A stretch of 64,000 nt of DNA, taken from IMG/VR virus record IMGVR_UViG_3300028907_000003, positions 21,000-84,999 of that record, one strand, 5' to 3'. Source of the DNA: a virus (taxonomy: Duplodnaviria > Caudoviricetes). The notes under the pieces were generated by a model that did no database searches, was not told where the DNA came from, and saw only the letters and a program-made list of their open reading frames with translations. The stretch's first letter is position 1; every line of letters begins with the position of its first letter. Made by a program: the position numbers and the translations under genes. Shown one piece after another: positions 1 through 53,700 of this stretch.

Positions 1-5
1 CTTTA

Positions 6-93
6 GCTGGTTTGGCTCAGAGGTACAGCGACGCACTGCTAATGCGTTTTGTGGCGAAAGCTGCGATCATCGGTTCGATTCCGATAACCAGCG
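6..93 (+). tRNA. tRNA-Ser (anticodon GCT), long variable arm, no encoded CCA
   Basis: Acceptor GCTGGTT(6-12)/AACCAGC(86-92) perfectly paired; anticodon arm ACGCA-CTGCTAA-TGCGT; variable arm with GAAA loop; T arm ATCGG-TTCGATT-CCGAT; discriminator G93. Confidence 0.92.
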
Positions 94-95
94 TC

Positions 96-260
96 ATGTC
101 CGAAATAACTGAAGTTGGAAATCTACTACTAAACATGATGAGTGGATTGTTACCAGAACATCTTAGCAAAGAAGAAGTTACACTACTTGAGATGGAATTT
201 GGAAAAAACTGGTTTGAAGCATTGGGTTATGATGATGAACACTACAAACGCCCTGCATAA
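96..260 (+). CDS. Hypothetical protein (54 aa)
   Basis: 3' part of track ORF 12..260; the ATG at 96 lies just after the tRNA; followed by a T-rich tract. Confidence 0.6.
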   Translation: MSEITEVGNLLLNMMSGLLPEHLSKEEVTLLEMEFGKNWFEALGYDDEHYKRPA

Positions 261-354
261 AAATTTTTTATCATCTATATTTGAGGAAGAAAACTTCTCG
301 TTGTTGGAAAAAAATATGGTAAACCCTTAATGTATTTTTATGGGTAATTCCACA

Positions 355-513
355 TCAACAACAAGAACAAGCTTCTCCAGCGCATTCACACTTTGCTTTT
401 TTAGTGCGCTTTCTCTTCTTTGGCTTATTGTCCTGCTGTTCTTTCATCGCTTCATACTTAGGATCATCGTCCCTAAAATACTTCATACATCCATTTACTA
501 CTAACCATGGCAT
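355..513 (-). CDS. Small basic protein with Cys-rich tail (52 aa)
   Basis: Manual translation MPWLVVNGC...KPKKRKRTKKAKCECAGEACSCC; ATG abuts the stop of 514..894 (TAAATG). Confidence 0.6.
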   Translation of the reverse strand: MPWLVVNGCMKYFRDDDPKYEAMKEQQDNKPKKRKRTKKAKCECAGEACSCC

Positions 514-894
514 TTATTTCGCCTCCGGAAAAGCTGCGTCTATTGAAATGTTCCATTCTCCACCAAAATCACTTGTATAAACCCTACCATTAACACGAGC
601 ATCCGATATCTGTAATGTGGTATGTGGTGTTAACAGGGTTAACGAAAATTTATTATCTAATGGTATTTTATGTACATTTATTGATTCTTCATCATCAAAC
701 GTCAAGTCCACGTAAATAGTCTTATCTTTATGACATTCGTTCACGAATATACGCTTTGCTTTAATCGACGTTATCATAGATGTCGTGCATGAATCTCCAA
801 CGACTTCTTTATTGATAAACACAGCTTTCGATTCTAATTGGATAGGTTCCAATTTTGGTTGTTTCCATACATTGAAATAATTTAATAGTCCCAT
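514..894 (-). CDS. Hypothetical protein
   Basis: 126-aa ORF, TATA-like element upstream. Confidence 0.65.
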   Translation of the reverse strand: MGLLNYFNVWKQPKLEPIQLESKAVFINKEVVGDSCTTSMITSIKAKRIFVNECHKDKTIYVDLTFDDEESINVHKIPLDNKFSLTLLTPHTTLQISDARVNGRVYTSDFGGEWNISIDAAFPEAK

Positions 895-974
895 ATGTAT
901 TACTATACATGTTCATAGTATATAAAGGTTACGTGTTAATGTATAATTATATGAAAAAATAAGTTAAAAGAGTT

Positions 975-1331
975 CTAAATGAATTCTAACCGAGTTGAAG
1001 TTTCCATTAATTGGGCAAATTCCTCCGGGGTGAAGAATAACTGATCTTGGTACTGTGTGGTGCGATCATATCCAACAGTACTACCTAGCTTCAATACTTC
1101 CCTGCTCTGATTAAGGGGCTTTCCGTCGTTTTCATTGTCCTTGGTAAACGCAGCCAAAGATGCTGTTAACGGCGTTGCTGTTAAATCTTCATTCAAGTCA
1201 CCTACAGAAACATTGGAATCTCCACCAAGCTTCACTACGGTATCTATACCATCCACGCTCGTAGCCGCTGCAGCAGACATGGTTAACGTCAGTGCAATCA
1301 GCAATAACATACTTGTTCTCATAACCAACAC
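975..1331 (-). CDS. Putative secreted protein
   Basis: N-terminal signal-peptide-like hydrophobic stretch ending in AAAA. Confidence 0.65.
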   Translation of the reverse strand: MLVMRTSMLLLIALTLTMSAAAATSVDGIDTVVKLGGDSNVSVGDLNEDLTATPLTASLAAFTKDNENDGKPLNQSREVLKLGSTVGYDRTTQYQDQLFFTPEEFAQLMETSTRLEFI

Positions 1332-1348
1332 TATGAACTACATGTTAT

Positions 1349-1897
1349 TTAAAGATTTCGCTCTATTATCGTATAAGGTGGAGCGCACCACGCATTGAAC
1401 TTACAAGCCACATCAAGCGCCATGGTTACTCGTGTTTTTGGATCGAGTGATAATCCAGATGTCGCATGTAATGAGCCTAATGCGTAATCTGTGCCTGAAC
1501 CATCTACAACATAATCGGCGTGAGCACAAACGGAATAATCAGCGCCCATTGAGTATAGATTATTTTTGTAAACTATAATCATATATGAATCGGGTATCCT
1601 GGACACTTCATCTATAACTTCCGCCATTTTGATGTTTTCTAGGCATGTTCTTAACGAATTTGCAAATTCTGTACTGAGAAAATCGAGATCTGACTTATCT
1701 TCTGGTTTTGCTGGAACGCTGAACTGAGATCTAATTATATCAGCAAATCGCAAATATCCACATATTCCGATTATAGTATCTCCTTTCTCGACAAGTTTAT
1801 TTGCCTCGGTGTTTATTATATGACCACCGGATGTTACTCGCGTGTCTGCACCAACGACTAATTTTCCGTCCTGTTTTAATCCAATTATACATGTCAT
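1349..1897 (-). CDS. Ntn-hydrolase threonine protease, proteasome beta/HslV-like
   Basis: After Met removal Thr1, Asp17 (GAD) and Lys33 are in proteasome register; GSG motif (VDGSGTDYALG); no propeptide. Confidence 0.85.
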   Translation of the reverse strand: MTCIIGLKQDGKLVVGADTRVTSGGHIINTEANKLVEKGDTIIGICGYLRFADIIRSQFSVPAKPEDKSDLDFLSTEFANSLRTCLENIKMAEVIDEVSRIPDSYMIIVYKNNLYSMGADYSVCAHADYVVDGSGTDYALGSLHATSGLSLDPKTRVTMALDVACKFNAWCAPPYTIIERNL

Positions 1898-1977
1898 ATG
1901 CTATATATAAGCTACCATAATATTAAAAGGTTTCGGATGGAAAGGTTTAAATACGAATAACATGTATATGGAGATGT

Positions 1978-2223
1978 ATGGTATTACCAAATGAATTCAA
2001 CATAGGACCGCTTATCATACGGGCTAATGTAATTGATGATAATATAGTTACTGCTATATTTGTTGGTACTAAATATGAAGATATGCACGAAATCACTGGA
2101 TTTCGGGATCCTTCTCGTGCCGCTGCATTTGTACAAGAATTACAAGCGTGGTCTGAAGTTCCTGATATATGTGCTCCCGAAAATCGCGAATTAGAAATAA
2201 CAGTAAAGGTGAAAAGGTTATGA
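1978..2223 (+). CDS. Hypothetical protein
   Basis: BRE-TATA (GAAAGGTTTAAATA) and GGAG RBS upstream; ATGA-coupled to the next gene. Confidence 0.7.
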   Translation: MVLPNEFNIGPLIIRANVIDDNIVTAIFVGTKYEDMHEITGFRDPSRAAAFVQELQAWSEVPDICAPENRELEITVKVKRL

Positions 2224-2777
2224 GAAGAATCTTCCTTGATGACTTTAATGATGGTCGTGAGACTGGTATTGAATTGGTTCAGTTGTATGGTGAATATCCT
2301 GGACAAGAAATAGTTACATATGGGATTCATTATAACACTGGTGATACACCAACTGATTATCCATACTGCGTCGTACCAAATGTTGGGATCAACTACTCGT
2401 TTAAAAAGAGTATGTTTATTCGTGTATATAATTGGGATCTTTTCCGTCAGCTAACTGGCGCAAAATCTATATCGGAATTAGGAATCTATCAATATGAATA
2501 TGATCCATATGGACTATTATATTTTGGTAGAAATACATATCCTAGAAGCCAATATGTGCAAGCCAGTGGTACAATAGCTGTATCAGGCGATTGGTGCGGA
2601 GATGGAATGATATTAGCCAATGCATTTACCAAAATGAATCCATATGTAATCGCAAATGGGAAATTCTCAAAAGAATTTGAATCCGATTTATTCATATCAC
2701 AGATAAAGATCTCATCTGACACTCAACAAGGACTGTATAGTTTTCCGCTTCTTCGTGTTACGGCGGTGATTGAGTAA
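2220..2777 (+). CDS. Hypothetical protein coupled to rtcB
   Basis: ATG at 2220 overlaps the upstream stop; its TAA overlaps the rtcB ATG. Confidence 0.7.
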   Translation: MRRIFLDDFNDGRETGIELVQLYGEYPGQEIVTYGIHYNTGDTPTDYPYCVVPNVGINYSFKKSMFIRVYNWDLFRQLTGAKSISELGIYQYEYDPYGLLYFGRNTYPRSQYVQASGTIAVSGDWCGDGMILANAFTKMNPYVIANGKFSKEFESDLFISQIKISSDTQQGLYSFPLLRVTAVIE

Positions 2778-3931
2778 TGGAAATATTAGAAACCCATAGA
2801 TTGCCCATCTATAATTGGGCAACTGACTTGGAACAGGGAGCTAAACAGCAAGCTATTAATTTAGCTTTGCACCCATACACGTATGATCATGTGGCTATTA
2901 TGCCTGACAGTCATCAGGGTTATGGAATGCCAATTGGTGGGGTTATTGCTACTAAGTCGGTGATCATTCCTGAAGCAGTGGGGGTAGACATCGGATGTGG
3001 TATGCAAGCTGTTAAAACTAGCCTCAGTGATATGAACATGACCGCTCTACAGCATGTAGTTGATGATATCAAATCTCGAATACCTGTTGGTTTCTCACAT
3101 AGATCTGAATCATTATGGGCTTATATGCCACCAGGACACGAAAAATTAACAGTTGTTAACAGGGAATTTGACTCGGCGTGTCATCAATTAGGAACATTGG
3201 GTGGCGGGAACCACTTCATCGAAATTCAGCAAGGTGATGATGGTTATATCTGGATGATGGTTCATAGTGGAAGCCGCAATCTAGGCAAGAAGGTAGCCGA
3301 TCACTATATAAAAATGGCTACTCAGCAGACAGCAGATTCCGATGTCAACATTCCTAGAAAGTGGGAATTAGACTACTTATACGTAAATTCACCAGATGGC
3401 CAAGATTACATACGAGAAATGAACTACTGCCTAGAGTTTGCTAAAGCAAATCGCTCATATATGATGAAAGAAATGTGTGAATCCATGAGCGCTGTCATAC
3501 CCACTGTTAGTTATGAGCCTGTAATTGATATACACCACAATTACGCCGAACCGATTAAACTGGATGGTCTTAATCTGGTGTTGCATAGGAAAGGCGCTAC
3601 AGCTGCTAATCGTGGTCAGATGGGTATTATTCCTGGCAGTCAGGGGACCGCCAGCTACATTGTAGAGGGCCGTGGTAATGGTAAGTCGTTTTGCAGCTGC
3701 TCACATGGATCCGGGAGGCGCATGGCTAGAGGAGTCGCCAAGCGAAACTTAAACCTGGATGATGAGCGGTATATACTCGATAGGCAAATGATCATTCATG
3801 ATATGACCAGTACTGAAGCCCTAGATGAAGCTCCAGGCGCTTACAAGAATATCGAATTGGTTATGGAGAATCAAAAGGATCTAGTAAAGCCACTAGTTAG
3901 ATTGACTACAAGAGCGGTGATAAAAGGATGA
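2777..3931 (+). CDS. rtcB: RtcB RNA ligase (3'-phosphate/5'-OH), short bacterial-like form
   Basis: MPDSHQG, VGVDIGCG, GTLGGGNHF, HSGSR, HRKGAT, SCSHGSGR and DEAPGAYK motifs. Confidence 0.95.
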   Translation: MEILETHRLPIYNWATDLEQGAKQQAINLALHPYTYDHVAIMPDSHQGYGMPIGGVIATKSVIIPEAVGVDIGCGMQAVKTSLSDMNMTALQHVVDDIKSRIPVGFSHRSESLWAYMPPGHEKLTVVNREFDSACHQLGTLGGGNHFIEIQQGDDGYIWMMVHSGSRNLGKKVADHYIKMATQQTADSDVNIPRKWELDYLYVNSPDGQDYIREMNYCLEFAKANRSYMMKEMCESMSAVIPTVSYEPVIDIHHNYAEPIKLDGLNLVLHRKGATAANRGQMGIIPGSQGTASYIVEGRGNGKSFCSCSHGSGRRMARGVAKRNLNLDDERYILDRQMIIHDMTSTEALDEAPGAYKNIELVMENQKDLVKPLVRLTTRAVIKG

Positions 3932-3986
3932 GCACTAAACATTTTTGTGATATCTGCAGCAAAGAGCTTTCATTGGTAACATGTGC

Positions 3987-4208
3987 CTACTGAGGGTAAC
4001 AATACCAGTTGGATACCCGGAGCCAATGGATAAGTGTATCGATTTGTGTACAAAATGCTATATGGATATATTTGAAAGGATCCAGAGATGACCGAAAACC
4101 AATTCCGCCGAATAACAATGATATTAGTCCTATTATAAAAGGATCAAAATACTTAGAATCATCATCTCCCGGCTCCAAAATACCATATACCCGAAGCTTC
4201 AATGACAT
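3987..4208 (-). CDS. Small putative membrane protein
   Basis: One hydrophobic segment FIIGLISLLFGGIGF. Confidence 0.4.
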   Translation of the reverse strand: MSLKLRVYGILEPGDDDSKYFDPFIIGLISLLFGGIGFRSSLDPFKYIHIAFCTQIDTLIHWLRVSNWYCYPQ

Positions 4209-4350
4209 AGTTAAATCTCCTCGGCATCCTTTCTGGGTCCAACCGGACGTAACCTTATAGCGAGTGATGTGAAATACTCTATAAAAATTGGGTATTGAAT
4301 CACCTTACCACCTGGAAATGTTATATCTATAAAGTTAAGATCGTTGTAAC

Positions 4351-4617
4351 TCATACCTTAACCTTCGTCCAGAAATTGCCCTTCTCACCACACTTGGGCG
4401 TTTTGGATGGTCCGAATAACCACTCGCGCCAAGTCTGTACAAGACAACGCTCAACCCTACAATCGAGAAGAGGCCCGTCGAATATTAAAAACCCCTTGAA
4501 TATAGGGTTGCATGTCTTCGTTTGCAACCTTGTGCATTTCATCGTCAGTCTATTCTTGCGATCCACTTTAGCGGAATAATTCCCGCAAGTATCACATGTC
4601 TTATTATCGCATGACAT
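4351..4617 (-). CDS. Cys-rich protein, paralog of 34714..34995
   Basis: Shared CxxC..C..C...CGxxGx(F/Y) pattern. Confidence 0.7.
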   Translation of the reverse strand: MSCDNKTCDTCGNYSAKVDRKNRLTMKCTRLQTKTCNPIFKGFLIFDGPLLDCRVERCLVQTWREWLFGPSKTPKCGEKGNFWTKVKV

Positions 4618-4674
4618 AGTACACTATTGGTTATACAGATATTTAAACTTTTTGACTAACTAAAAAAGAAGTGA

Positions 4675-5769
4675 TCACCAACACATGATGGGATCACATG
4701 AGATCGCTATCTGTGGAGTTACCATCTTTACAGCTTCCAGGAAATCATCATTGGTAATCATATCAGCATCGCGTCTAATCGCGATCATACCAGCTTCAGT
4801 TACTACCGCTTTCAGCTGCGCTCCATTAAACTTATCGGTTATCTTAGCGATATGAACCAGATTCGCATCATGGGGAACTCCGGTAGTATGTATCTTCAAG
4901 ATTTCCAATCTAGCAGCTTCATTTGGTAAGGGAATTTCAATGAGCCGATCAAAACGCCCCGGACGGAGTAAAGCAGGATCTATTACATCGATCCGATTAG
5001 TCGCAGCAATGATCCTAACATTTCCCCGGATGTTGAATCCATCCAATTCCGCAAGTAGCTGCATCATGGTACGCTGGACCTCATCAGAGCCAACCGTACC
5101 ATCATTGGTACGAACCTTACAGAGAGCATCGATTTCATCAAAGAATATGATAGACGGAGCCTTATCACGAGCCAGCTGGAATAATTCTCTAACCAACTTA
5201 GCACCTTCTCCAATGAACTTAGCAACTAGTTCAGTTGAAGCCATGTTGAAGAATGTAGCATTAGTAGCAGCCGCTACAGCTTTTGCAGCAACCGTTTTTC
5301 CACACCCACTCGGACCATACAATAATACTGCTTTTGGTGGTTCGATATTGATCCTTTTGAATGCGTCTGGCTTTATCAGTGGTAACTCAAGGACTTCTCT
5401 AATGTCGCGGATTTGTTTCTCCAATCCACCGATTTGCTCATATGATGTAGTGGGTTTTGACATTAGTTCCATGATATGAACACGTGGATCTTTGCCACCT
5501 CGCAAAACAGCCATGATCACACATCCAGCGTTAATCGCTACTACTGCTCCGGGTAATACCCGCTGTTCCAGGTCGGGACTGCAATATGTAGCTAATTCCA
5601 TGTTATTTCCCCGCTGGCGAATTATAACTACATCATCATCGATGACATCTATGACATCAGCTACGCTGAAAGGTGGGTTTGATAAGTTTCGAATGATCTC
5701 AGCTTGCTTATCAATAGTTGCTCGCATCTGTGCCATCTGTGTTATAGTAGAAGCTATATCTTCACTCAT
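4675..5769 (-). CDS. pan: Proteasome-activating nucleotidase-like AAA+ ATPase
   Basis: Short coiled coil plus NPP-OB region; GPSGCGKT Walker A; KFIGEGA pore loop; IIFFDEID Walker B; EVQRTMMQLLAELDGF; LLRPGRFDR. Confidence 0.93.
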   Translation of the reverse strand: MSEDIASTITQMAQMRATIDKQAEIIRNLSNPPFSVADVIDVIDDDVVIIRQRGNNMELATYCSPDLEQRVLPGAVVAINAGCVIMAVLRGGKDPRVHIMELMSKPTTSYEQIGGLEKQIRDIREVLELPLIKPDAFKRINIEPPKAVLLYGPSGCGKTVAAKAVAAATNATFFNMASTELVAKFIGEGAKLVRELFQLARDKAPSIIFFDEIDALCKVRTNDGTVGSDEVQRTMMQLLAELDGFNIRGNVRIIAATNRIDVIDPALLRPGRFDRLIEIPLPNEAARLEILKIHTTGVPHDANLVHIAKITDKFNGAQLKAVVTEAGMIAIRRDADMITNDDFLEAVKMVTPQIAISCDPIMCW

Positions 5770-5805
5770 ACTCAGTACTTAGCATTCGAACTATTTAAAT
5801 GTTCC

Positions 5806-5841
5806 GCTATCGTAGATTTATATGTAAAACTACGTTAAAAG
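5806..5841. promoter_or_regulatory. Palindromic intergenic cassette C, copy 1
   Basis: 32/36 identical to 6455-6490; inverted repeat around TATG. Confidence 0.7.
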
Positions 5842-5883
5842 AGCGATAGGTTTATATTTAGGTAATGTCTATAAGAGATCAGT

Positions 5884-6099
5884 ATGAAATATGATAAAAA
5901 ATTCCCGTATGCAGAATACTTGGATGAAGTCTTTGGAGGAATATTTAAAGGCCATGAAAAGCGCCCATGTTTTATCTGCGGTGAATTGACCGAGTTTGTA
6001 GATATGGATTATCAAGCTCATCTATGCTCAGAAGAATGCTCGACAGAACTAGATCAACGTGCGCTCAAAGCATGTTTAGAATCAGCGGTGGTAACATGA
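5884..6099 (+). CDS. Small Zn-binding (TRASH-like) protein
   Basis: CFIC...LCSEEC. Confidence 0.6.
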   Translation: MKYDKKFPYAEYLDEVFGGIFKGHEKRPCFICGELTEFVDMDYQAHLCSEECSTELDQRALKACLESAVVT

Positions 6100-6449
6100 A
6101 AACATCATACTTTAGCAAAGTAAAAGAAAATTTCCCAAATGCTGTAGCTATATGCCGATATAGCCCTGCTTGGTGGTCCGGATTTGAATATAAAGCTCTT
6201 GCGCCTAGTACTAAATTGCTATCGGATTATCGAGGAAAGGGTATATCTGATGCTGAATATGGCGCTAGATACCAACGAGAAGTATTAAATCTGTTGGATC
6301 CGCGTGTTACTTATGAAACAATTTGTAAGATGGCGGGTCCAGATGCTATATTGGTGTGTTGGGAAGGACCGACTAAATTCTGCCACAGGCATTTAGTTGC
6401 GCAGTGGTTTGAAGATGAAATTGGATGTAAAATACCGGAATTAGTATAA
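6096..6449 (+). CDS. DUF488-like protein
   Basis: TSYF...LAPS...LVCWE...CHRHLVAQW pattern; ATGA-coupled start at 6096. Confidence 0.75.
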   Translation: MKTSYFSKVKENFPNAVAICRYSPAWWSGFEYKALAPSTKLLSDYRGKGISDAEYGARYQREVLNLLDPRVTYETICKMAGPDAILVCWEGPTKFCHRHLVAQWFEDEIGCKIPELV

Positions 6450-6454
6450 CTCCG

Positions 6455-6490
6455 GCTATCGTATTTTTATATGTAAAAATACATTAAAAG
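6455..6490. promoter_or_regulatory. Palindromic intergenic cassette C, copy 2
   Basis: Perfect 9-bp inverted repeat GTATTTTTA-TATG-TAAAAATAC; followed by AAAAGGTG RBS. Confidence 0.7.
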
Positions 6491-6498
6491 GTGTTTCA

Positions 6499-6771
6499 AT
6501 GAATTACGGCGCATTTATGAGAATGTGGGAAATGGATGGGTTCCATTTCGTAGAGCATGAACGACATAAGCGTGAAGATGCTACGTGGGTATTGGTAACA
6601 GTGCTATCCGATTCGTTTACAAGCTCGTATGGAAGGCACTTTGGTATCACACTAGCGCTAGGAAAGGATGAACAGATCTTAGCACATGATATTATTAATC
6701 TGCAAGATAGTACGAATCCTACCCAGGACACTATGCGATGGTTTAAGCAGAATATGGAGAGTGGTCTTTAA
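6499..6771 (+). CDS. Hypothetical protein
   Basis: 90-aa ORF with AGGTG RBS. Confidence 0.65.
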   Translation: MNYGAFMRMWEMDGFHFVEHERHKREDATWVLVTVLSDSFTSSYGRHFGITLALGKDEQILAHDIINLQDSTNPTQDTMRWFKQNMESGL

Positions 6772-6948
6772 ATGAGCTTGGTGATTCGAGAATGATGAAG
6801 CGCGGAGTACCTGAGCAGCCTGCGTTATTGGAACCAGTACCCATGTATGTATATCATACGGTTACTGGATCCACAGGAGGATACGCGTGTTTTGCAAACA
6901 CAAACGCTACTACTTCGAGTACATGGTATGGAATAACGCCGTGATATT

Positions 6949-7371
6949 ATGGAATACCAACTAGTAGATCGAATATTAGACGAAAGTGTGTCTAATGTAT
7001 GGGAAATTGCCCGAATGGAATGGAAATTTATAGAAGCTATGTATGGTGATGGAAGAGATAGCTGCGTATGCGGCCATCACCCTATAATAGAATTATGCTT
7101 CATTGAAAATCAATACAACGGAAGAAAACTAATTGTTGGAAATTGCTGTGTTAAAAAATTCATGCCTCAGATGAAAACCGATGCAGTATTTCGAGCTATT
7201 AAAAAGAAAACTCTGAATCAGCCAATTATAGATTACGCTTATCAACATGGATGCATCAATGATTGGGAGTTCAAATTCTTAGCAAGTATTAAACGAAAAC
7301 GAATTTTATCTGAGAAACAAAAATTATACAAGCAACGGCTATCCAACAAGATTTGGAAATCAGTCGGGTAA
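6949..7371 (+). CDS. Hypothetical Zn-binding protein
   Basis: CVCGHHPI...VGNCCVKKF motif. Confidence 0.7.
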   Translation: MEYQLVDRILDESVSNVWEIARMEWKFIEAMYGDGRDSCVCGHHPIIELCFIENQYNGRKLIVGNCCVKKFMPQMKTDAVFRAIKKKTLNQPIIDYAYQHGCINDWEFKFLASIKRKRILSEKQKLYKQRLSNKIWKSVG

Positions 7372-7372
7372 T

Positions 7373-7402
7373 GTATTTTTATATGAAAAAGTACGATAAA
7401 AG
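7373..7402. promoter_or_regulatory. Palindromic intergenic cassette C, copy 3 (degenerate copy 4 at 941-970)
   Basis: GTATTTTTATATGAAAAAGTACGATAAAAG. Confidence 0.55.
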
Positions 7403-7675
7403 GTGATAATAATGGTAGAACACAAGATGATAGACGGCGAGATGTCAGAATGGTGCAGAATTAAGTTTGAATCGTGGTGCAAGACGATACCGAATCTGTG
7501 GCGGTACGAAGAAAAGCTAACCGACATTGAAGCGAATTATCCACAAGCGATGTCCACGTTCTATAGGATCCTCAGCGAGCATGCTATCGCTATGGGAAAA
7601 GTACGCACATATGATGCCATTCAATGGTTCATATTCGGAGGACTTATTGGATGTCTAATAGGACTCCTCCTTTAA
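7403..7675 (+). CDS. Protein with C-terminal transmembrane anchor
   Basis: Ends WFIFGGLIGCLIGLLL. Confidence 0.65.
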   Translation: MIIMVEHKMIDGEMSEWCRIKFESWCKTIPNLWRYEEKLTDIEANYPQAMSTFYRILSEHAIAMGKVRTYDAIQWFIFGGLIGCLIGLLL

Positions 7676-8491
7676 TGTATTTTTAACGTAACTTTATTAA
7701 AAAATTAATGTATAATCTCTAGTACATATCAAAAAATATAAAAAACATGGAGGGGGCCGGATTTCAACAGTCTAAAGATAGTGATGGGGTACGGGTCCAC
7801 TGCTACCGATTTTGAGAATTACTTTATTATTATTTTTTGTTGTTACCTGGTTTAAATTCGTATGCTATAGGTAATATTTTTAAATTAATGGAATAATAAT
7901 CGTGTTTTTAGATCGCGATTTTAAAAACATTATCAGCAAAGGCCATGATTCATATTCACATTATTATAAATATGAGTTATAGGCTGATAAGCATAGGTTT
8001 ATGCCGCAGATATAGCTTATTCTTATATGATATGGAATAAATGACTTAGGAAAGCACAAAATAGCCCAGTAACACGTTAAATTATACACATTTTTATAAT
8101 AATATGTCCTGGCAATCAACCCTTAGATTCATATACCAAAAACATATTTATAAAATTGTTTGAATGAACATTTTTATTTTTTCATTTTTATATCACAAAA
8201 TATTATTTTTTGACCGTAATTGTTAATAACTCTTGCAGGTTCCCGCATATCGATTTTATATCCTGGCAATAGTATATTTTACCTTATGTTTAATGTTTAT
8301 TTTATTATTACTGTTATCGTTGTTTATAATATGCCTTACTGTTATTTATATTCTGACCATATAATAGTATTCTGTATGGGTCTGCTGATATCGCTTTTAT
8401 TATTTTTGGTATTTACCGATTTTATACGTTCGCTTGATAGTGTTTTTTGTAATTCGCGCAAACCATATAGACTTATTTTTAATGGTCCTAT

Positions 8492-8672
8492 ATCGCGATA
8501 TTAAAACCGATAACTATAAGCCTATTTTTTGATATGAACCTTGAATTATGAACCTTTACCGCGAGAAATGAGCCAAAAAATGAACCTTTACCGCCCTATA
8601 TGTAGAAAGCTTTATATACTTGAAAAACAAGGTATAGCATAGACAAAAGCTAAATAAGGAGATACGGAAATG
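8492..8672 (+). promoter_or_regulatory. Repeated promoter cassette A1
   Basis: First 71 nt are 66/71 identical to 10301-10371; ATGAACCTTTACCGC twice; GAAAGC-TTTATATA BRE/TATA; AAGGAG RBS. Confidence 0.85.
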
Positions 8673-8780
8673 ATAAGCAAATATCAAGCACGAAAAAACC
8701 ATCAATTAGCCGTTGAAAAAACAATATTAGAGGTATTAGCAATTGGAATATCTTTATTAATCGTAGTGTTATCAATCTAA
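8670..8780 (+). CDS. 36-aa membrane peptide
   Basis: First ORF after cassette A1; hydrophobic C-terminus. Confidence 0.55.
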   Translation: MISKYQARKNHQLAVEKTILEVLAIGISLLIVVLSI

Positions 8781-8793
8781 GGAAGGGTTAAAA

Positions 8794-8946
8794 ATGGCTA
8801 ATGTTAGACGAATATCGAGGAGGCGGAAAGCCGACAAAACAGCAGTTTCAAACCATTGGAGACAACAATATATTAATTCTGTCATAAATGGTGGGATTGA
8901 AGCTTTCGCATTGCCGGAAACAGAAACAACAGGATATTCGTTATAA
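8794..8946 (+). CDS. 50-aa basic peptide
   Basis: MANVRRISRRRKADK...; purine-rich RBS. Confidence 0.55.
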   Translation: MANVRRISRRRKADKTAVSNHWRQQYINSVINGGIEAFALPETETTGYSL

Positions 8947-8966
8947 ATTAAAGGAGTTGAATAAAA

Positions 8967-9659
8967 ATGCAAAATTTTATTGTGATGGGTGAACAGATAA
9001 AGAGCTTTGGAATTGAGAATATCGCAAATATGCACCATCTCTATATAGAGATTGACCATGTAGAAAAGACGGGAAGATATCAGCTATTCGATAATTCAAG
9101 CAATATTATTCAAGAATCAGATAAGCCTTACGATTTTATTTTTGGATATCTTAAAAAAGAGAAATTATTAAAATATTCCATGAATAAATGGGAAAGCGGA
9201 GATTCGTATATCGGCGAACACTACGATGATTATTATGTAATTGCCTCAATGCATCGAGATTCAAATATATTGGAAAAATCCAATTACACCAGTATTAAGA
9301 AATGCTTGGATGAGAATAAAATTACATATATAGAAGTAAGGTTCGCCCATTGGGCTGTTGGTTGGGTTGATCAAATATTAATCCAAGAAGAAGAATATTA
9401 TTCTCTTGAATTTGTCGAGGATAATATTATGGATAGAATAAAAGATTATCCTATATTTGATGAGGATAATTTTGAAGAGTTTAGAATCGAAGAACAAAAC
9501 GGTAATATCGAGATGATATTAGACGATCTTAGACGGCAATTTCAAGTGAATAATCTATCTCAGGAAGAAAAATTAGAATATGTAAAAAAGACTTGGTATA
9601 TGGACGGCTTAACTCGGCAAAGTTTAGAAGATGCCGCTTATGATATGGTGGAATTTTAA
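8967..9659 (+). CDS. Conserved hypothetical viral protein
   Basis: RDSNILEKSNY...FAHWAVGWVD...DYPIFDE pattern recalled from tailed-virus hypotheticals; AAGGAG RBS. Confidence 0.75.
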   Translation: MQNFIVMGEQIKSFGIENIANMHHLYIEIDHVEKTGRYQLFDNSSNIIQESDKPYDFIFGYLKKEKLLKYSMNKWESGDSYIGEHYDDYYVIASMHRDSNILEKSNYTSIKKCLDENKITYIEVRFAHWAVGWVDQILIQEEEYYSLEFVEDNIMDRIKDYPIFDEDNFEEFRIEEQNGNIEMILDDLRRQFQVNNLSQEEKLEYVKKTWYMDGLTRQSLEDAAYDMVEF

Positions 9660-9899
9660 ATGAAACATTTTATTTTAATGTGGGGATTAAAAGGATGTCT
9701 ACCAGATACATGCCAAGCATTTAAATATAAAAAAGATGCTATTCAATACACCATCGATGTATTAGAACTGCCAAAATATGGGAACACTATTAAAGATTTA
9801 AAAGAATTTAATTACGTTGATACAAATATTGTGCATGGTATTGAATATATAGAAATAGAAATATGCAATTGTAAGGATATTAATGTGCATATGGAGTGA
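9660..9899 (+). CDS. Hypothetical protein
   Basis: Abuts the upstream stop. Confidence 0.65.
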   Translation: MKHFILMWGLKGCLPDTCQAFKYKKDAIQYTIDVLELPKYGNTIKDLKEFNYVDTNIVHGIEYIEIEICNCKDINVHME

Positions 9900-10150
9900 T
9901 TTATATGTATCAAGTTATATATAAAGGTGCTACGATTGAATCAAAGCATATGATACGAATAGCCCATATCATCCATACTATTCAAGTAAAAGAATTCAAA
10001 GATACATATATGGATGTAGTAGAAAAAGGAGGATTTATAAAAATCCCTCCATCAACTGCGGATATATATAAATCCTTAGTTGGGAGAAAGCCGACAAAAA
10101 ACCAAATAGAATTATTAAAATCCTGGTATGGTGATGAGAGATATATTTAA
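9896..10150 (+). CDS. Hypothetical protein
   Basis: GTGA-coupled to the upstream gene. Confidence 0.6.
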   Translation: MIYMYQVIYKGATIESKHMIRIAHIIHTIQVKEFKDTYMDVVEKGGFIKIPPSTADIYKSLVGRKPTKNQIELLKSWYGDERYI

Positions 10151-10300
10151 TTGGGTGAATAAAAACATGAGATGCGAATTTTGCCGGACAGGATGGACAC
10201 ATTACAGCAATGTATCACGAGAAGAAGAGATATTTGCTATTTGCCCATACTGCTTTAATCCGAGATTAACCGAATGACAATTAGTATTAGTTAAACGGTA

Positions 10301-41726: not shown

Positions 41727-41968
41727 TCGAAATTCCAGTTATTAAATGTGATGGATGTTTCGAAGTAACGCCACTGGATGAAGTTGATGTTATCGAGAAG
41801 CATCCTAATGGTATCGTATTCAAATGCCCTCAATGCGGGTTAACTGATCTATCCTTCGGTGAACCGTTTTATGTACCAATGGGACCGGATCCGGAAGATG
41901 AAGCATTGAACGAGTTAGACAAAACATACGATTATGATATTTGGTTGAGGCATAAATGCAGATCTTAG
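41723..41968 (+). CDS. Zn-ribbon protein
   Basis: CDGC...CPQCG. Confidence 0.7.
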   Translation: MIEIPVIKCDGCFEVTPLDEVDVIEKHPNGIVFKCPQCGLTDLSFGEPFYVPMGPDPEDEALNELDKTYDYDIWLRHKCRS

Positions 41969-44900
41969 ATTGCTATTACAAGTACGATCACAAAGAGAAG
42001 CATCCAACGGTGTTTTTAGTTGGGAAAGATGCTAATGGAAAGCTGAGAACTTTACATACTGAGCACCATTATCCGTACTTCTATGCGGTTGGTGAATTAC
42101 CGCCCAAACTTGCTGATAACCACATGATACATAGCATAGATGCAGTAGATAAGTTCCTTCCGATTGGATATCAAACACAGACCACGCCAATGTGGAAAAT
42201 CACTCTATTTAATCCCGGTGATACCAGTGAAATACGGGATGGGTTAATTGATAGAGGACTAAAGGTGTTTGAAGCTGATATCTTGTATAAGTATCGCTAT
42301 ATGGTAGATCACAATTTAGGGGGAATGATTTGGACCAATGATGGGATACATCGGGTGGAAAACGAGTTAAATGCGCCATTAAAAACGCTGGCATTTGATA
42401 TCGAAGTATTGCTTAATGAGGCTGGCAATTTCCCAATATCCAGCCCCTCGGTTGACACAAAAGGCAATCTCCTCAGAGAAGCGGATCCCATAGTGATCAT
42501 TACAATGGCTATGTCGGATGGTAACATCAAGCTGCTCAAAAACGATGATGAAGCTGAACTTCTACGGGATTTTGTAACCGAAGTTAATAAGTTTGATCCA
42601 GATATTGTTGTTTCATATAACGGTGATAGTTTCGATTGGCCGTACATCATTGATCGAGCGCATCTCAATGAAGTTCCGTTGAGCATCGGGAGAGATAAAT
42701 CTGAGCCAAAGATTCGAGAGGTTGGAGATTCGAGCCAGATTTTAATCCGAGGACGGGTTTCGCTGGATATGCTACCGATAATTCGTAAGAATTATTCGTT
42801 AAAGAATTACAAGTTAGCAACTGCCGCTTCGCTAGTCAATGAGGAAAAGCTCGATGTGAAGCCACAGGAAATGCGCAGATTGTGGTTGGCTCATGATACA
42901 AAATTCCTGGAATATGCTAAACAAGATGCCAATATTACGCTAAAGTTGCTACTGGATCTCAAGTTGTTAGAAAAATACATCGCATTATCAAAAGCTACAG
43001 GATTATTGCTACAAGATGTTTTATATAGCGGCCAATCAGCAATGATTGAGAACTTATTTCTAAAGGAGTTCAATAAGCGAGATCGTGTATTGGGAATCAA
43101 GCCTAGAAGAAGTGCAGCTAAAATAAAGTCGGAACCATTAGATTGTGTTTTCGGGAGCTATATCGAATCATCGGAAGAAGATGATGACGGTGTTAAATAT
43201 GAAGGAGCCACCGTATTAACACCACCAAAGGGTTTAGTAGAAGATGTAGTTGTTCTGGATTATAAATCGCTATACCCAACTATAATTATATCGCATAATC
43301 TCTCGTATGATACTATCCTTCTGGATGATACTCTGGATGTACCATATGAAGAAGCTCCTAAATTCAACCAGGAAGCCACCAGAGGCCCAAGGTTCGTAGA
43401 TAAGACTGTTCTTAAGGGGATTTTACCTAGCATCTTAGAAACTCTCTTAGAGGAGCGATTAGAGGCCAAGAAAGCGATGAAGGCCGCTGCTGACGGATCT
43501 TTGGAGAAAACGCTGTATGATGCCAAACAATACGCTTTTAAAATATTACTTAATTCATGTTATGGGTATTGTGGATATAAACACTCACGCACATTTATAG
43601 TTGATATTGCCGCCAGTGTTACTAGTTATGGTAGACAAAACATTGAAAAAACTCGGCAATTGGTCAAAGAAATGGGATATGAAACTGTATACGGTGATAG
43701 TATCACTGGTGATCGATGTATAACCATTAAAGATCATGATAATATGATTAAAGTTATACCAATTGAAAAACTGTTCCATGGCACTATCCAACATGATGTA
43801 TTCAGTAATAAAGATTATATTACTGAAGTTCCATATATGGCACTCACCCATCTGGGTTGGCGGCCAATTAAATCTATTATGCGACATCATACTGAAAAAC
43901 AGTTATATCGAATTAATCAGAAATTTGGCGAAACTGTCTGTACCGAAGATCATTCATTGATGGATATTAATTTACACGAAATGAAGCCCATGGAGATGCA
44001 TAACACTGAAATGTATAGATGTGACGTACCAGAACCATCAACATATATAGAAATCATTGATTTGTACGAATATGTTAAAGATTTTAAAGTGCGTGTTGTA
44101 TATAAAGGGCGTACTAAGATAAGTAAATTTAATTTATATAATGATGAGTATTTAACCTTTGGGTGGACTGTTCGGAAAAACCCAATATTATTAAAACGGT
44201 ACATTAAAGAAACTGATATAGATCAGTTGTGTATATTACTTGGTGGATATATTACTAACGGAAGTTCGGTTTTTGGTAGTAAAACCGGAGCAAGTATATG
44301 TGATTCTAACATCGATTGGTTAGAAAAAATGCAATTCGCATATAATTCGTTATTTATTGGTGCAAAAACTTGTATCATTGAGTCGAGTAAAAAAGATCGT
44401 GTATTACAAAATGGTACAGTTTATAAAGACAAAACGCGAAAATTGCAAATGATGAATGGCATTAGTGCGGCGTTGTTTACTGCGTTATGTAATCATGGCG
44501 CATATAGTAAAAAACTACCCGATTTTGTGTATAATCTACAACCAACCCATCGTGAAATATTGTTATCCACTATTATAGAGGGTGATGGATCAAGAACCAG
44601 TTGTACCAGATATACTGAGTCATATCGAAAAATAGAATTTACGTATAGTACGGTGTCTACTGAGTTGGCATCAGGTTTATCTACATTAATGAATATAATG
44701 CGTATAAATCACAGCATTCGATTTAGACAAGCCAAACATGAATATAAATTAGTTACTTCTAGTGTCTTTAATAGCAAGATAATAACTAAATTGTCGAAAG
44801 AGCCATCAAACACTTATGTGTATGATATAGAAGTAGATGATGCTCACGCATTTGTTGACTCGTGTGGAAATATATTATTACACAATACGGATTCTTTATT

Positions 44901-45645
44901 CGTTAAAACAAATATCGCAGATTTTGATCAATCTATGCAGATTGCCGATAAACTTGCAAAAGCCGCGACAGCACAGCTTCCACCACCAATGGAGCTAGTA
45001 CCGGAAGCGTACTGTAAGCGAGTTCTGTTTCTCGCGAAAAAACATTATTCTAAATATCAATTTGAGAAAAGGGGTATTGGAAAAATTAAAAGTAAAGGAT
45101 TAGAAACTGTTAGGCGTGATTGGTGTGAGTATACATCTGAAACATTGACCGCTATACTAAATACTGTAATGCTCGAAGGTGATGTTGATAAGGCTCTTGA
45201 AATTGCTCGCGAAGCAATAACTAAGATTAAGACATCTGATTTAACGGATCCGGGTATATACTGGAAGCTGGTTTTGTCAAAAAAATATGGAAGTGAATAC
45301 AAACCAGGTGCGGAAACAAGATTGGCTCACCTTATTCTGATAGACAAAATGAAAAAACGGAATCTCATGGATTACCAAGTTAATGATAGAGTGCAATTCG
45401 TGGTTGTTAAAGGATCTTCTGATTTAACTAAGGATGATCATCGCGGTAAATTCAGAGATCAAGCTGAGGATCCTGAGTATGCTTTGGAGCATGGAATTGA
45501 ACTAGATCGAAAGTATTATATAGAAAAACAGCTAGTAAAACCTATTCACCGAATGCTAGGTGTGCTCGGTGTTACAGAAGCGATGCTCTTAAATACTAGT
45601 ATCGCTAAAGAGAGTAGTATGCAAAAGACGCTGTTCGATTGGTGA
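41956..45645 (+). CDS. polB: Family B DNA polymerase with intein
   Basis: Exo AFDIE, YNGDSFD, YAKQDA; DYKSLYP, KILLNSCYG, YGD/TDS, KKHY, KGLE; C-terminal PIP box QKTLFDW. Confidence 0.96.
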   Translation: MQILDCYYKYDHKEKHPTVFLVGKDANGKLRTLHTEHHYPYFYAVGELPPKLADNHMIHSIDAVDKFLPIGYQTQTTPMWKITLFNPGDTSEIRDGLIDRGLKVFEADILYKYRYMVDHNLGGMIWTNDGIHRVENELNAPLKTLAFDIEVLLNEAGNFPISSPSVDTKGNLLREADPIVIITMAMSDGNIKLLKNDDEAELLRDFVTEVNKFDPDIVVSYNGDSFDWPYIIDRAHLNEVPLSIGRDKSEPKIREVGDSSQILIRGRVSLDMLPIIRKNYSLKNYKLATAASLVNEEKLDVKPQEMRRLWLAHDTKFLEYAKQDANITLKLLLDLKLLEKYIALSKATGLLLQDVLYSGQSAMIENLFLKEFNKRDRVLGIKPRRSAAKIKSEPLDCVFGSYIESSEEDDDGVKYEGATVLTPPKGLVEDVVVLDYKSLYPTIIISHNLSYDTILLDDTLDVPYEEAPKFNQEATRGPRFVDKTVLKGILPSILETLLEERLEAKKAMKAAADGSLEKTLYDAKQYAFKILLNSCYGYCGYKHSRTFIVDIAASVTSYGRQNIEKTRQLVKEMGYETVYGDSITGDRCITIKDHDNMIKVIPIEKLFHGTIQHDVFSNKDYITEVPYMALTHLGWRPIKSIMRHHTEKQLYRINQKFGETVCTEDHSLMDINLHEMKPMEMHNTEMYRCDVPEPSTYIEIIDLYEYVKDFKVRVVYKGRTKISKFNLYNDEYLTFGWTVRKNPILLKRYIKETDIDQLCILLGGYITNGSSVFGSKTGASICDSNIDWLEKMQFAYNSLFIGAKTCIIESSKKDRVLQNGTVYKDKTRKLQMMNGISAALFTALCNHGAYSKKLPDFVYNLQPTHREILLSTIIEGDGSRTSCTRYTESYRKIEFTYSTVSTELASGLSTLMNIMRINHSIRFRQAKHEYKLVTSSVFNSKIITKLSKEPSNTYVYDIEVDDAHAFVDSCGNILLHNTDSLFVKTNIADFDQSMQIADKLAKAATAQLPPPMELVPEAYCKRVLFLAKKHYSKYQFEKRGIGKIKSKGLETVRRDWCEYTSETLTAILNTVMLEGDVDKALEIAREAITKIKTSDLTDPGIYWKLVLSKKYGSEYKPGAETRLAHLILIDKMKKRNLMDYQVNDRVQFVVVKGSSDLTKDDHRGKFRDQAEDPEYALEHGIELDRKYYIEKQLVKPIHRMLGVLGVTEAMLLNTSIAKESSMQKTLFDW
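43699..44886 (+). mobile_element. Intein at the YGD/TDS (Pol-c) site, 396 aa
   Basis: Starts SITGD, ends LLHN, Thr at +1; LAGLIDADG-like LGGYITNG and IIEGDG; AT-rich. Confidence 0.92.
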
Positions 45646-50703: not shown

Positions 50704-53700
50704 GTGCTACGAATGCAAAAGAAAGTTTTAACAAGTGACGGTTACGTGTCTACGTTTGACAAGCAGAAGATCATCGATGAGATCCGCAAGAACTGTAAAT
50801 CGATGGGTGTTGAAGTCACCGAGAAACAGTTAACCAAGATTGCTACTAACACAGAAGAAAGTATTAAAGAAATGAAACCCAAACATCTTACCGGGAGTCT
50901 TATTCGTAGTGTATCTCTGATTGAGATGCTGGATCTAGGATTAGAAGATGTTTATAAGGCGTGTGCTAAAGTTGGTATGCCGATTGCTGATATGATGGCG
51001 ATATGGCAAGTAGATGGCGATAGTGTTCATGATAACGCCAATTTAGATGGCACTAATCAGGAGACTCAACACAAAAGAATCGCTGATCATATTTGTAAAG
51101 AAGCCGTACTACAAATGCTTCCTAGCGATATATCGAAACTCCATGTTGAAGGGAATCTACACTGTTTGTCTGGTGACATGCCAATTGTGTATAAAATACA
51201 AGATAAGATATACATATCTACCATCAAGGAATTAGTGGAAACTAGATATGAATCAGCTGTTAGTGTTCCGTCTATTGATACGCGCACGAAAAAGATATCG
51301 TGGAAACCTGTTACTCGATTTATAAAAAATCCATCTACCGATTTATACAAAGTCACGTTTGGTAAAGGTCGATATATCATTTGTACATCGGATCATCCAT
51401 TTTACAAAACATCGGGGCAACATATCCAACATTACACTCAACCACTTAGTGATTTACGAGTTGGTCATAGAATCGCCACATTAAATCATATACCAATTGA
51501 TGATGTACAAGATGAAACCTATCGTGGTAATTTAATTGGGTTTTTCTTGGGAGATGGTACATTACAGCATGGTTGTATATGTTTTCATTTGAAAAAAACC
51601 GAAAAAATCACATATCTTATAAATGTATTAAACCATTTAGATAAATCATATGATATGACAAATAACATAGATGGGACAACTACAATTTCATTTAAAGATG
51701 ACGAATTATGTGAAATTTGGAATAATTCAAAAAATATATCAAACTTCAACGAAGTTGATGCTACTGGCATTCTGTCAGGTTTAATTAATTCAGATGCATC
51801 CATCGTATTACATGGGATTAACAAGTTACCATATCTCGAATTCGGTAATACTAACGAAGATATCATTAATTTATATCATTGTTTAATGCTGATGCATGGT
51901 ATAAACGTAAGCTATCAACGATATGACAAAAAATCCGATACGCATAAAGATTTTTATCATTGTGTGTGTTCTGGTGAAGATGTTACCAACTTATTATGTA
52001 AACTAAGGTTACGTAAGCCGTTTGCGGATCGAGTTGCTCAACAATTCACGCATGGGACTAGAAAAACGCATACTTGGTCACAAATACCAATTAAATCTAT
52101 TGAATATTATGGTAATGAGGACACATATGATATTACAGTAGATGAAAATCATAATTTCTTGGCCGGTCATGGATTTATTCTATCAGGCAATTGTCATGAT
52201 ATGGAATACTTTACAAATCGCCAGTTTTGCTACAACAGTGACCTCCGTTTCATTTTATATTATGGACTACTCCCAGATGGATGTGGCAAAACATTACCAG
52301 TTGCAAGAGCAGCACAAACCGCAGAAGTTGCACTTCTACACGCTGCTAAATCACTTGGTTCAAGTCAATGTAATTGCGCTGGAGGTCAGGGGTACAATTC
52401 GTTTAATGTACTAATTTCTCCATATTTAGCTGGTAAGACCTACGCTGAAATAAAACAATTGGCGCAGATGTTTATATACGAAATGGGTCAAATGACATGC
52501 GCTCGTGGAGGACAAAGCCTGAGTTATGATACCCCAATCGTGATAAAGCGGGGTGATGACATCGATATTATATCAATCGGGGATTTCGTTGGTAAATATT
52601 TAAATCAGCCTGGATCATCCACTGTTGATGATATAATATTAACACCATCATTGAACCGGATAACTAATCAAGTAGAATGGAAACCCATAACGCATGTATA
52701 TAAGCATGTGCCAAAATCGAAATTAGTGGCAACATCTCTTCATGATGGTCGATCTGTTACGACAACGGAAGATCATTCATTATTTGATATTAATCAATTC
52801 GGTGATATATATGAAATTTCACCAAGTGATAATCCACACACAATCATCACGGTTAAACAGATTCCAATAACAGGATCAACTATCATTAATCACGATTTGG
52901 CTTTTTTAATTGGTTGTTGTATCGGTGATGGATCTCTTGCTGCTAATAATGGTATACCCGATACTTCTATGCGACTATGTATACACAATCGCGCTGTTAT
53001 GAATCGAATATCTGATATAGTATATAATCTGAATGGATCTGCTGGCGAGTGGCATGAAGATACTCAAAAAAAATGTTCAAGTATGTCGTTTTCTACGATT
53101 GGAATTCCATTAATTACTGAAATTGGTAAAGGAGCATCAAATAAAAGAATACCAGCTGCATTATTGTCATGTGATAATGATACACTTCTATCATTATTAG
53201 ATGGTTTGTTGTCAACTGATGGTAATATAAATCGTAGACGATACCAATATAGCACAACATCAAAAATTCTAATTAATCAAATTGAATACATATTACGTAG
53301 GATTGATTTAGATTACCATATAGATAAACGATTTACAAAAAGTAACTTTGTTAGAAATCACCCAGTATATCGCGTTACGTTAAGTACGATTAGTTCGCTT
53401 GGTATAAAAATTACAAATGATGAACGAACTATCGTAAATACTAATATAATTTCCCAACAACGACATGACTTTAGTATCATGAAATCCGAAATAACTTCTC
53501 GCGTACCCGGATTAAGTAAGTATAGCTACACTTGGCGAGCATCTTCACGAAGGCTAAAGTATCATCAATTAGAACAAGTATCACATTTAATACCGGATAC
53601 ATGGAACAAAATATGCAATATATTACCAATGGAAGTAAAGTCTATAAAAATAACTGAACCAGAAGAATTTGTATTCGACATAGGTGTACAAGACAATGAA

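Follow-up and report, generated by a model that had tools for sequence, protein, structure and literature searches.

A virus-encoded PAN-type unfoldase lacking the HbYX aromatic, beside an HslV-family phage peptidase, in the genome of a probable methanogen virus

Introduction

Can a virus assemble a protease of its own from an archaeal proteasomal ATPase and a proteasome-like peptidase? The question is raised by two genes in the IMG/VR virus record IMGVR_UViG_3300028907_000003, an 84,999-bp sequence of which we analyzed bases 21000–84999 (a stretch of 64,000 nucleotides, hereafter the window; coordinates below are window positions). The first gene encodes a PAN-type AAA+ unfoldase of 364 amino acids (aa) with coiled-coil, OB and AAA+ regions (4675..5769, minus strand), and the second a propeptide-free N-terminal nucleophile (Ntn) peptidase of 182 aa with an active-site Thr1 (1349..1897, minus strand), which belongs to the phage “HslV family” phrog_1040. 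A first-pass annotation of this DNA had presented the two as a candidate new two-component protease, in which a viral PAN-like unfoldase would serve an alpha-less, proteasome-beta-like protease.

We conclude that the ATPase is a new, virus-borne variant of PAN without the HbYX motif and that the peptidase adds a new member to a phage family already known, whereas the two-component protease is a hypothesis. As to what the genes do, we put at about even probability the reading that PAN was captured as an unfoldase independent of the 20S proteasome and lies beside a generic phage peptidase, the two genes having been acquired, and being transcribed, separately.

Results

Integrity and Architecture of the PAN-Type ATPase

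The ATPase scored 460.1 bits against the NCBIfam PAN model NF003069 (residues 5–351) and 428.5 bits against TIGR01242, in both cases without reaching the cut-off of 500, and PAN from A. fulgidus (6he8) aligned with its residues 25–351. In the AlphaFold model, a helix spanning residues 2–30 is followed by OB strands (35–90) and then by the AAA+ module and lid, and the last ten residues (355–364) form a tail without order. The helix is assigned from the predicted secondary structure to a short N-terminal coiled coil (5680..5766, minus strand), and the OB-fold domain (5500..5667, minus strand), supported by both alignment and AlphaFold, begins after a conserved hinge at Pro32-Pro33. ATPase motifs are complete. 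Walker A reads GPSGCGKT (5293..5316, minus strand), in which Pro154Ser and Thr156Cys leave the GxxGxGKT pattern in place, and the Walker B motif (IIFFDEID), pore loop (KFIG) and arginine fingers (RPGRFDR) are all canonical. The first-pass description of an intact PAN-type ATPase is thus upheld by both the profile match and the motifs.

Both Walker A substitutions fall at nearly invariant P-loop positions and were found only in the window strain and a 99% identical twin; the other members of its clade, like cellular PANs, have G-x-P-G-T-G-K-[T/S]. In alignments, the columns of the ATPase and translocation motifs are invariant across the viral clade, which retains 147 invariant columns among members that are only 56% identical.

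Relatives of the Viral ATPase

The named cellular relatives of the ATPase are PANs of Methanoregula and Methanoculleus (54–58% identity, 386–392 aa), and when the clade profile was used as query the top cellular matches were 411-aa PANs of the Methanothrix/Methanosarcinales type. Identity to Methanomicrobiales and Methanothrix-type PANs together ranges from 51 to 58%. The window protein clusters with P0001 and P0002 (99 and 84% identity), P0003 (69%), and P0015 and P0018 (58%), forming a clade with full support in the Shimodaira–Hasegawa-like approximate likelihood ratio test (SH-aLRT). This clade does not fall within the Methanomicrobiales PANs; its sister group (support 88) is formed by the Methanothrix-type PANs, and its precise position is made uncertain by long branches.

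The clade comprises five protein clusters among 5.8 billion proteins. Searching this set with the clade profile added no further members, as scores fell from 652 bits to ∼500 bits for the best single-domain PANs. No full-length match to the ATPase was present among 50,697 GenBank phage records, pattern scans of IMG/VR for the window PAN, a PAN alignment, P0018 and P0003 gave no match, and a scan of JGI metagenomes returned only an irrelevant fragment of a eukaryotic Rpt. P0003 lies on a contig of 8.3 kb. P0018 lies on one of 125 kb and was not found in the GTDB species genomes, which would fit a large virus. The literature we searched contained no description of a virus-encoded PAN, and the clade is rare and probably new.

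The C-Terminal Tail and the N-Terminal Coiled Coil

The penultimate Tyr of the HbYX motif is needed for binding to the alpha ring (reviewed in PMC5476697). All 36 cellular PANs that we compared have Tyr or Phe at this position, 35 of them ending in R-M-[Y/F]-x and one in D-M-F-V. By comparison, the flexible tail of the viral ATPase (4678..4707, minus strand) ends in I-M-C-W, so that the Met at the Hb position is kept and the penultimate aromatic is replaced by Cys. The full ending PIMCW had been reported in the first-pass annotation as a departure from HbYX, and so it is. Tails in the viral clade read IMCW, NMCW, IMCY, RMFC, RMCA, and VMVS; an aromatic residue at position −2 is found in one of the five clusters against 36/36 cellular PANs (Fisher p = 5e-5), and the Met at position −3 is the sole fixed residue.

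The tail is the least constrained part of the ATPase. Only three differences separate the window protein from its 99% twin, and one of them (I361N) lies in the tail; in the 84% relative the terminal Trp has become Tyr. Because the tail differs even between 99% identical strains, its variation suggests relaxed constraint after loss of the 20S function rather than retargeting or a new docking motif, and a relaxed tail in turn speaks slightly against a complex with the viral peptidase ring that depends on the tail. The one tail with an aromatic, R-M-F-C of P0003, resembles the R-M-F-[S/T] of the sister Methanothrix group, and for this reason the ancestral viral PAN probably still had a functional HbYX key. 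Mapped on the tree, the aromatic was probably lost more than once.

At the other end of the protein, 33 residues precede the hinge proline, compared with 55–59 in PANs of the Methanomicrobiales type and 74–113 in those of the Methanothrix type, which agrees with the shortened coiled coil seen at first pass (33 vs. 55–113 residues overall). The pre-hinge segment measures 29–37 residues in four of the five clade members, and about four heptads are left.

The Peptidase Is a Phage-Type Group I Proteasome Homologue

The peptidase begins MTCIIGLK, with Thr directly after the initiator Met and no in-frame start upstream. Counted from Thr1, Asp17 and Lys33 are present, together with a GSG motif (DGSGTDYALG). 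Across 80 aligned representatives of the family, T2, K34, and G133 never vary and D18 and G135 hardly do (numbering here includes the Met). The propeptide-free Thr1/Asp17/Lys33 protease of the first-pass annotation is therefore real, with triad and GSG motif conserved.

Its family is that of phages. The match to the PHROG phrog_1040 (“peptidase HslV family”) covers residues 1–179 at E = 7.8e-22, and 80/80 of the family representatives match the same PHROG. The score against the Pfam Proteasome family PF00227 is slightly below cut-off (20.8 vs. 22.4 bits), and those against the HslV models TIGR03692/NF003964 (26.8 bits vs. 157.75, and 27.4 vs. 137) and the archaeal beta-subunit model TIGR03634 (25.7 bits, cut-off 224) do not reach theirs. 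A profile search of 1.84 billion cluster representatives returned ∼1,900 clusters (at 50% identity) with E ≤ 1e-30 and 7,083 with E ≤ 1e-10, nearly all of ∼180 aa and with the match beginning at residue 1, and homologues were present in 22 GenBank phage records. One relative of the peptidase, P0128, is encoded on a 9.9-kb contig.

The AlphaFold model (predicted local distance difference test score [pLDDT] 97) gave its best Foldseek match to BPH (5ovs; template modeling [TM] score 0.85), followed by HslV (1m4y; 0.79–0.83) and the archaeal beta subunit of Thermoplasma (1pma; 0.67). BPH is also the closest solved relative by sequence (E = 1.4e-6). In the terms of Fuchs, Alva & Lupas (2021; PMC8665760), for whom group I consists of HslV, BPH, AAH, CPH, and PPH and is confined to bacteria and bacteriophages, the peptidase is a group I proteasome homologue. 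Its origin is the phage gene pool, not an archaeal proteasome beta subunit, and “alpha-less proteasome-beta-like” is correct as a description only. The first-pass interpretation is partly supported: the features on which it was built hold, but the peptidase is of the HslV/BPH type.

Two other roles for the peptidase were considered and set aside. A prohead protease was rejected, the gene being ∼12 kb from the portal/capsid module and belonging to a family found elsewhere among early or nucleotide-metabolism genes. Use as a substitute beta subunit in host alpha rings is unlikely, the fold being nearer to BPH and HslV than to archaeal beta subunits.

The Peptidase Family Occurs Without PAN

An alpha subunit, already noted as absent from the window, is missing from the whole 84,999-bp record (∼80% complete), in which PF00227 matches the peptidase alone. 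The whole record likewise lacks HslU or any second AAA+ protein (searches with PF07724 and PF00004 match the PAN-like gene alone), and no ClpP was found in it.

Co-occurrence across viruses had been suggested as a check on a functional pair, and in the direction from peptidase to PAN it speaks against one. Among 39 IMG/VR records chosen because they encode a peptidase with the start MTCI[IV]GL[KI], 12 of them ≥90% complete, not one carries a gene resembling PAN; in 10 of the 12 near-complete records AAA matches are lacking altogether. The PF00004 search, which was also run on nine peptidase-bearing genomes, detected PAN in the record that contains the window (E = 4e-44), which served as a positive control. 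None of five complete peptidase-bearing GenBank genomes (PhiF1, Geobacillus E3, henriette, D'Alembert, and MTATph1) encodes an ATPase of the PAN or HslU/Clp type. By Pfam, the AAA matches of henriette and of IMG/VR record G004 are clamp loaders; those in D'Alembert, MTATph1, and the records G006, G008, and G016 are weak and not PAN-like. A jumbo phage with HslV genes and no HslU has also been described (PMC7823757). The phrog_1040 family does not need a virus-encoded unfoldase, since it stands without a PAN-like gene across the viruses surveyed.

Only one of the 39 records has a classical AAA gene near the peptidase. In IMGVR_UViG_3300033141_002837, a fragment, a classical-clade AAA protein of at least 840 aa (6736–10263 of that record; AAA domain at residues 465–585), not of the PAN type, lies ∼3 kb from the peptidase and may represent an independent unfoldase–peptidase pairing in a phage.

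The only cultured methanogen virus among the peptidase matches is Methanobacterium virus PhiF1. Its ORF52 (MK994522.1, 51915–52490), annotated as “putative ATP-dependent protease,” is a phrog_1040 homologue (27% identity) and directly precedes the anaerobic ribonucleotide reductase gene. With the window virus, this makes at least two unrelated viruses of archaea that carry group I proteasome homologues, which conflicts with the published range of bacteria and bacteriophages only.

Locus Organization and Promoters

The two genes lie on the same strand 2,778 bp apart, the measured value behind the 2.8 kb of the first-pass annotation. Between them is an opposite-strand unit (1978..3931, plus strand) of three genes joined by ATGA-type stop/start overlaps: an 81-aa open reading frame (ORF; 1978–2223), a 185-aa ORF (2220–2777, with an internal ATG at 2220), and an RtcB RNA ligase (2777–3931; 384 aa, E = 2.7e-105) that is translationally coupled to both. 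Each of the two minus-strand genes is preceded by a box resembling the archaeal B recognition element and TATA element (BRE/TATA): AACCTTTTAATA (1921..1932, minus strand), 23 nt upstream of the peptidase ATG, and AACATTTAAATA (5792..5803, minus strand), 22 nt upstream of the PAN ATG. We predict these boxes to be the genes' own promoters, that of the peptidase implying a leaderless or short-leader mRNA. Because three opposite-strand genes intervene and each gene has its own BRE/TATA-like box, the pair is not an operon and would be transcribed as separate units.

We rejected the shared promoter as evidence of co-regulation. The 12-mer pattern was built from these same two boxes, which makes its two exact matches circular, and the box looks like the general BRE/TATA consensus of the virus; independent of how the pattern was derived, one-mismatch copies precede the two downstream minus-strand genes.

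The peptidase is the first gene of a leftward run that continues with two small genes of no assigned function (975–1331 and 514–894). Following PAN, 57 nt past its stop codon, is a Cys-rich 88-aa ORF (4351..4617, minus strand) with a C-x4-C-x2-C motif near the N-terminus, no family match, and no promoter box of its own, which is possibly co-transcribed with PAN. On the other side, just past PAN and amid many small genes of no known family, a 141-aa DUF488-N3a protein is encoded (6024–6449, plus strand; E = 5.8e-9).

The 81-aa and 185-aa ORFs had no Pfam or PHROGs match. They could be RtcB cofactors, possibly archease-like, or serve in tRNA-repair counter-defense beside the tRNA array; in an Rfam scan of window positions 1–9000, the sole match was a tRNA-Ser.

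A 41-nt palindromic intergenic cassette around TTTATATG is present in four copies (933–973, 5804–5844, 6453–6493, and 7365–7405) that are 68–83% identical to the reference copy. One copy lies in the divergent region adjoining the PAN promoter and none adjoins that of the peptidase.

The Virus and Its Probable Host

The source is a head-tailed virus: genes for the portal, large terminase, and a baseplate wedge protein lie in the first 20 kb of the record, which CheckV places at ∼80% completeness. The window encodes a family-B DNA polymerase, a primase/helicase, RNA ligases, NrdD, and radical SAM genes. The DNA polymerase (41956–45645, plus strand; 1,229 aa) and NrdD (50704–55365, plus strand; 1,553 aa) are far above the usual length and match their families in separated stretches, which suggests inteins or inserted domains. 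A terminase query for kin of the virus returned a single 15-kb fragment, at 97% identity. Given the archaeal BRE/TATA-like promoters and the fact that the nearest cellular relatives of its PAN are those of methanogens, a methanogen host from the Methanomicrobiales or Methanotrichales is very probable.

Discussion

The reading that we favor can be set out as follows. A methanogen lineage would have been the source of the captured PAN gene, which among cellular genes is nearest to the Methanothrix-type and Methanomicrobiales PANs. Its product combines a short coiled coil and an OB ring with an AAA+ motor and pore loops that are intact, and is predicted to function still as a hexameric unfoldase. 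This unfoldase would no longer open the gate of the host 20S because the penultimate aromatic of HbYX and the Arg that precedes the motif have been lost, and stable docking on the 20S has probably been lost too. We infer that it most likely acts as a homohexamer, unfolding or taking apart proteins of the host or the virus without involvement of the 20S. The peptidase, its Thr1 presumably exposed by the methionine aminopeptidase of the host, probably forms a double ring with no gate and digests peptides and unfolded chains, which is presumably also its role in the many phages that carry it and encode no unfoldase. Any cooperation between the two would most likely be indirect, with the unfoldase releasing unfolded chains that the peptidase then degrades, and would involve no dedicated docked complex.

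Several points weigh against this reading. Identities to relatives run in parallel series for the two proteins (99, 84, and 69% for PAN; 98, 84, 82, and 57% for the peptidase), as expected if the same few related viruses carry both, and the two genes appear to be kept together within this small virus lineage. In a host without HslU, a viral unfoldase would make functional sense for an HslV-like ring. An unfoldase working without a protease would be unusual in the proteasomal ATPase clade, and the invariant Met at position −3 may mean that some docking function persists. Finally, the reading is drawn from sequence and predicted structure.

The first of these points also bears on a dedicated hybrid protease, in which the PAN-derived hexamer docks directly on the HslV/BPH-like ring of the same virus and supplies it with unfolded substrates, in the manner of HslUV. 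We regard such a machine as possible and less probable than the favored reading. It would explain the disappearance of HbYX by the lack of an alpha-ring gate to open, and the loss of the motif throughout a clade whose motor is strongly constrained is in keeping with it, as are a peptidase without propeptide or alpha partner, a PAN that is the only AAA+ protein in a record where no other compartmental protease was found, and archaeal hosts that lack HslU. The two genes are also part of one small cluster on the minus strand, each behind a BRE/TATA box of the same type, and the parallel series could suggest joint retention. That series, however, reflects shared descent and not independent co-occurrence, and the peptidase family is without PAN in 39/39 IMG/VR records and 5/5 GenBank genomes, including the methanogen virus PhiF1. 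Nor do the two genes form an operon, and the tail differs between near-identical strains, which would be unexpected of a new docking motif. The nearest structure, BPH, is heptameric and has no known unfoldase.

Interference with the host proteasome seems to us unlikely. In this scenario, viral and host PAN subunits would combine into mixed hexamers, or the viral protein would bind the 20S and leave its gate shut; in either case the resulting cap would redirect the proteasome or act as a dominant negative, so that viral proteins are protected or degradation is retargeted. Its 51–58% identity to methanogen PANs, with hinge prolines and OB domain kept, is consistent with this, and so is the invariant Met at −3; the Methanothrix-like R-M-F-C of P0003 indicates that the ancestral viral protein was probably capable of 20S docking. 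Yet the aromatic is gone in four of five lineages, probably by repeated loss, which argues that 20S docking is not under selection, and a coiled coil 20–45 residues shorter than in host PANs, with four hinge-adjacent residues absent, would be mismatched in mixed pairs. That one or both genes are decaying, non-functional remnants of horizontal transfer is very improbable: the PAN score of 460 under the NCBIfam cut-off of 500, the two unusual Walker A substitutions, and the long branches of the clade might suggest it, but both reading frames are full length with every catalytic residue intact, the PAN clade keeps its 147 invariant columns at only 56% identity, the peptidase triad is invariant, and both AlphaFold models are confident.

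The viral PANs amount to a natural experiment on HbYX, in which the motor residues are kept and the aromatic key, never lost in the cellular PANs, has been lost, probably repeatedly; they separate the part of PAN that serves the 20S from the part useful alone. The peptidase is notable only for its location, which places a group I proteasome homologue in archaeal viruses when the group was formerly thought limited to bacteria and their phages. If the viral PAN does not dock, it is a candidate host-takeover or anti-defense unfoldase in methanogens, organisms relevant to wastewater treatment. If it does dock, the locus would hold a new, independently evolved unfoldase–peptidase pairing with a bearing on how proteasome-family rings recruited their ATPases; as a dedicated hybrid, it would be a cross-domain machine destroying host proteins during infection and the third case in which a proteasome-family peptidase independently acquired an unfoldase.

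Comparison With Known Systems

The viral ATPase shares with archaeal PAN (6he8, 3h4m) the same order of coiled coil, hinge Pro-Pro, OB fold, AAA+ module with lid, and flexible tail, as well as conserved Walker A and B motifs, KFIG pore loop, and Arg fingers. It differs in being encoded by a virus, in lacking the HbYX aromatic and the preceding Arg, and in falling below the curated cut-off within a separate long-branch clade of five clusters. The peptidase is set apart from archaeal 20S beta subunits by the absence of a propeptide and of a partner alpha subunit in the record, and by a TM score of only 0.67 to 1pma.

With HslV it has in common the propeptide-free Thr1, Lys33, the GSG motif, a length of ∼180 aa, and a TM score of 0.79–0.83 to the T. 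maritima protein. HslUV and the viral pair also have in common the idea that a ring with neither gate nor alpha subunits is served by an unfoldase; the virus record, however, has no HslU-type ATPase, and the peptidase scores far under the HslV cut-off. HslU itself falls in another AAA+ clade than the proteasomal ATPases and does not share their interface (PMC8665760). BPH (5ovs, 5ovu) is the best match by both sequence and fold, each protein being a compact group I subunit with an active-site Thr1. BPH forms a double ring of heptamers for which an unfoldase is not known (PMC8665760); the viral peptidase is only ∼20% identical to it, and BPH is a bacterial cellular protein.

The closest parallels are the group I homologues of phages, two classes of which, AAH and PPH, have been spread by phages (PMC8665760). 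Like them, the viral peptidase is phage-borne, of ∼180 aa, and a member of phrog_1040 with an MT.. start, and its genomic setting among early and nucleotide-metabolism genes is that seen in Geobacillus E3, Vibrio phage henriette, and PhiF1. What distinguishes the window virus, along with PhiF1, is an archaeal host, and among the records examined it alone has a phrog_1040 peptidase beside a PAN-type ATPase.

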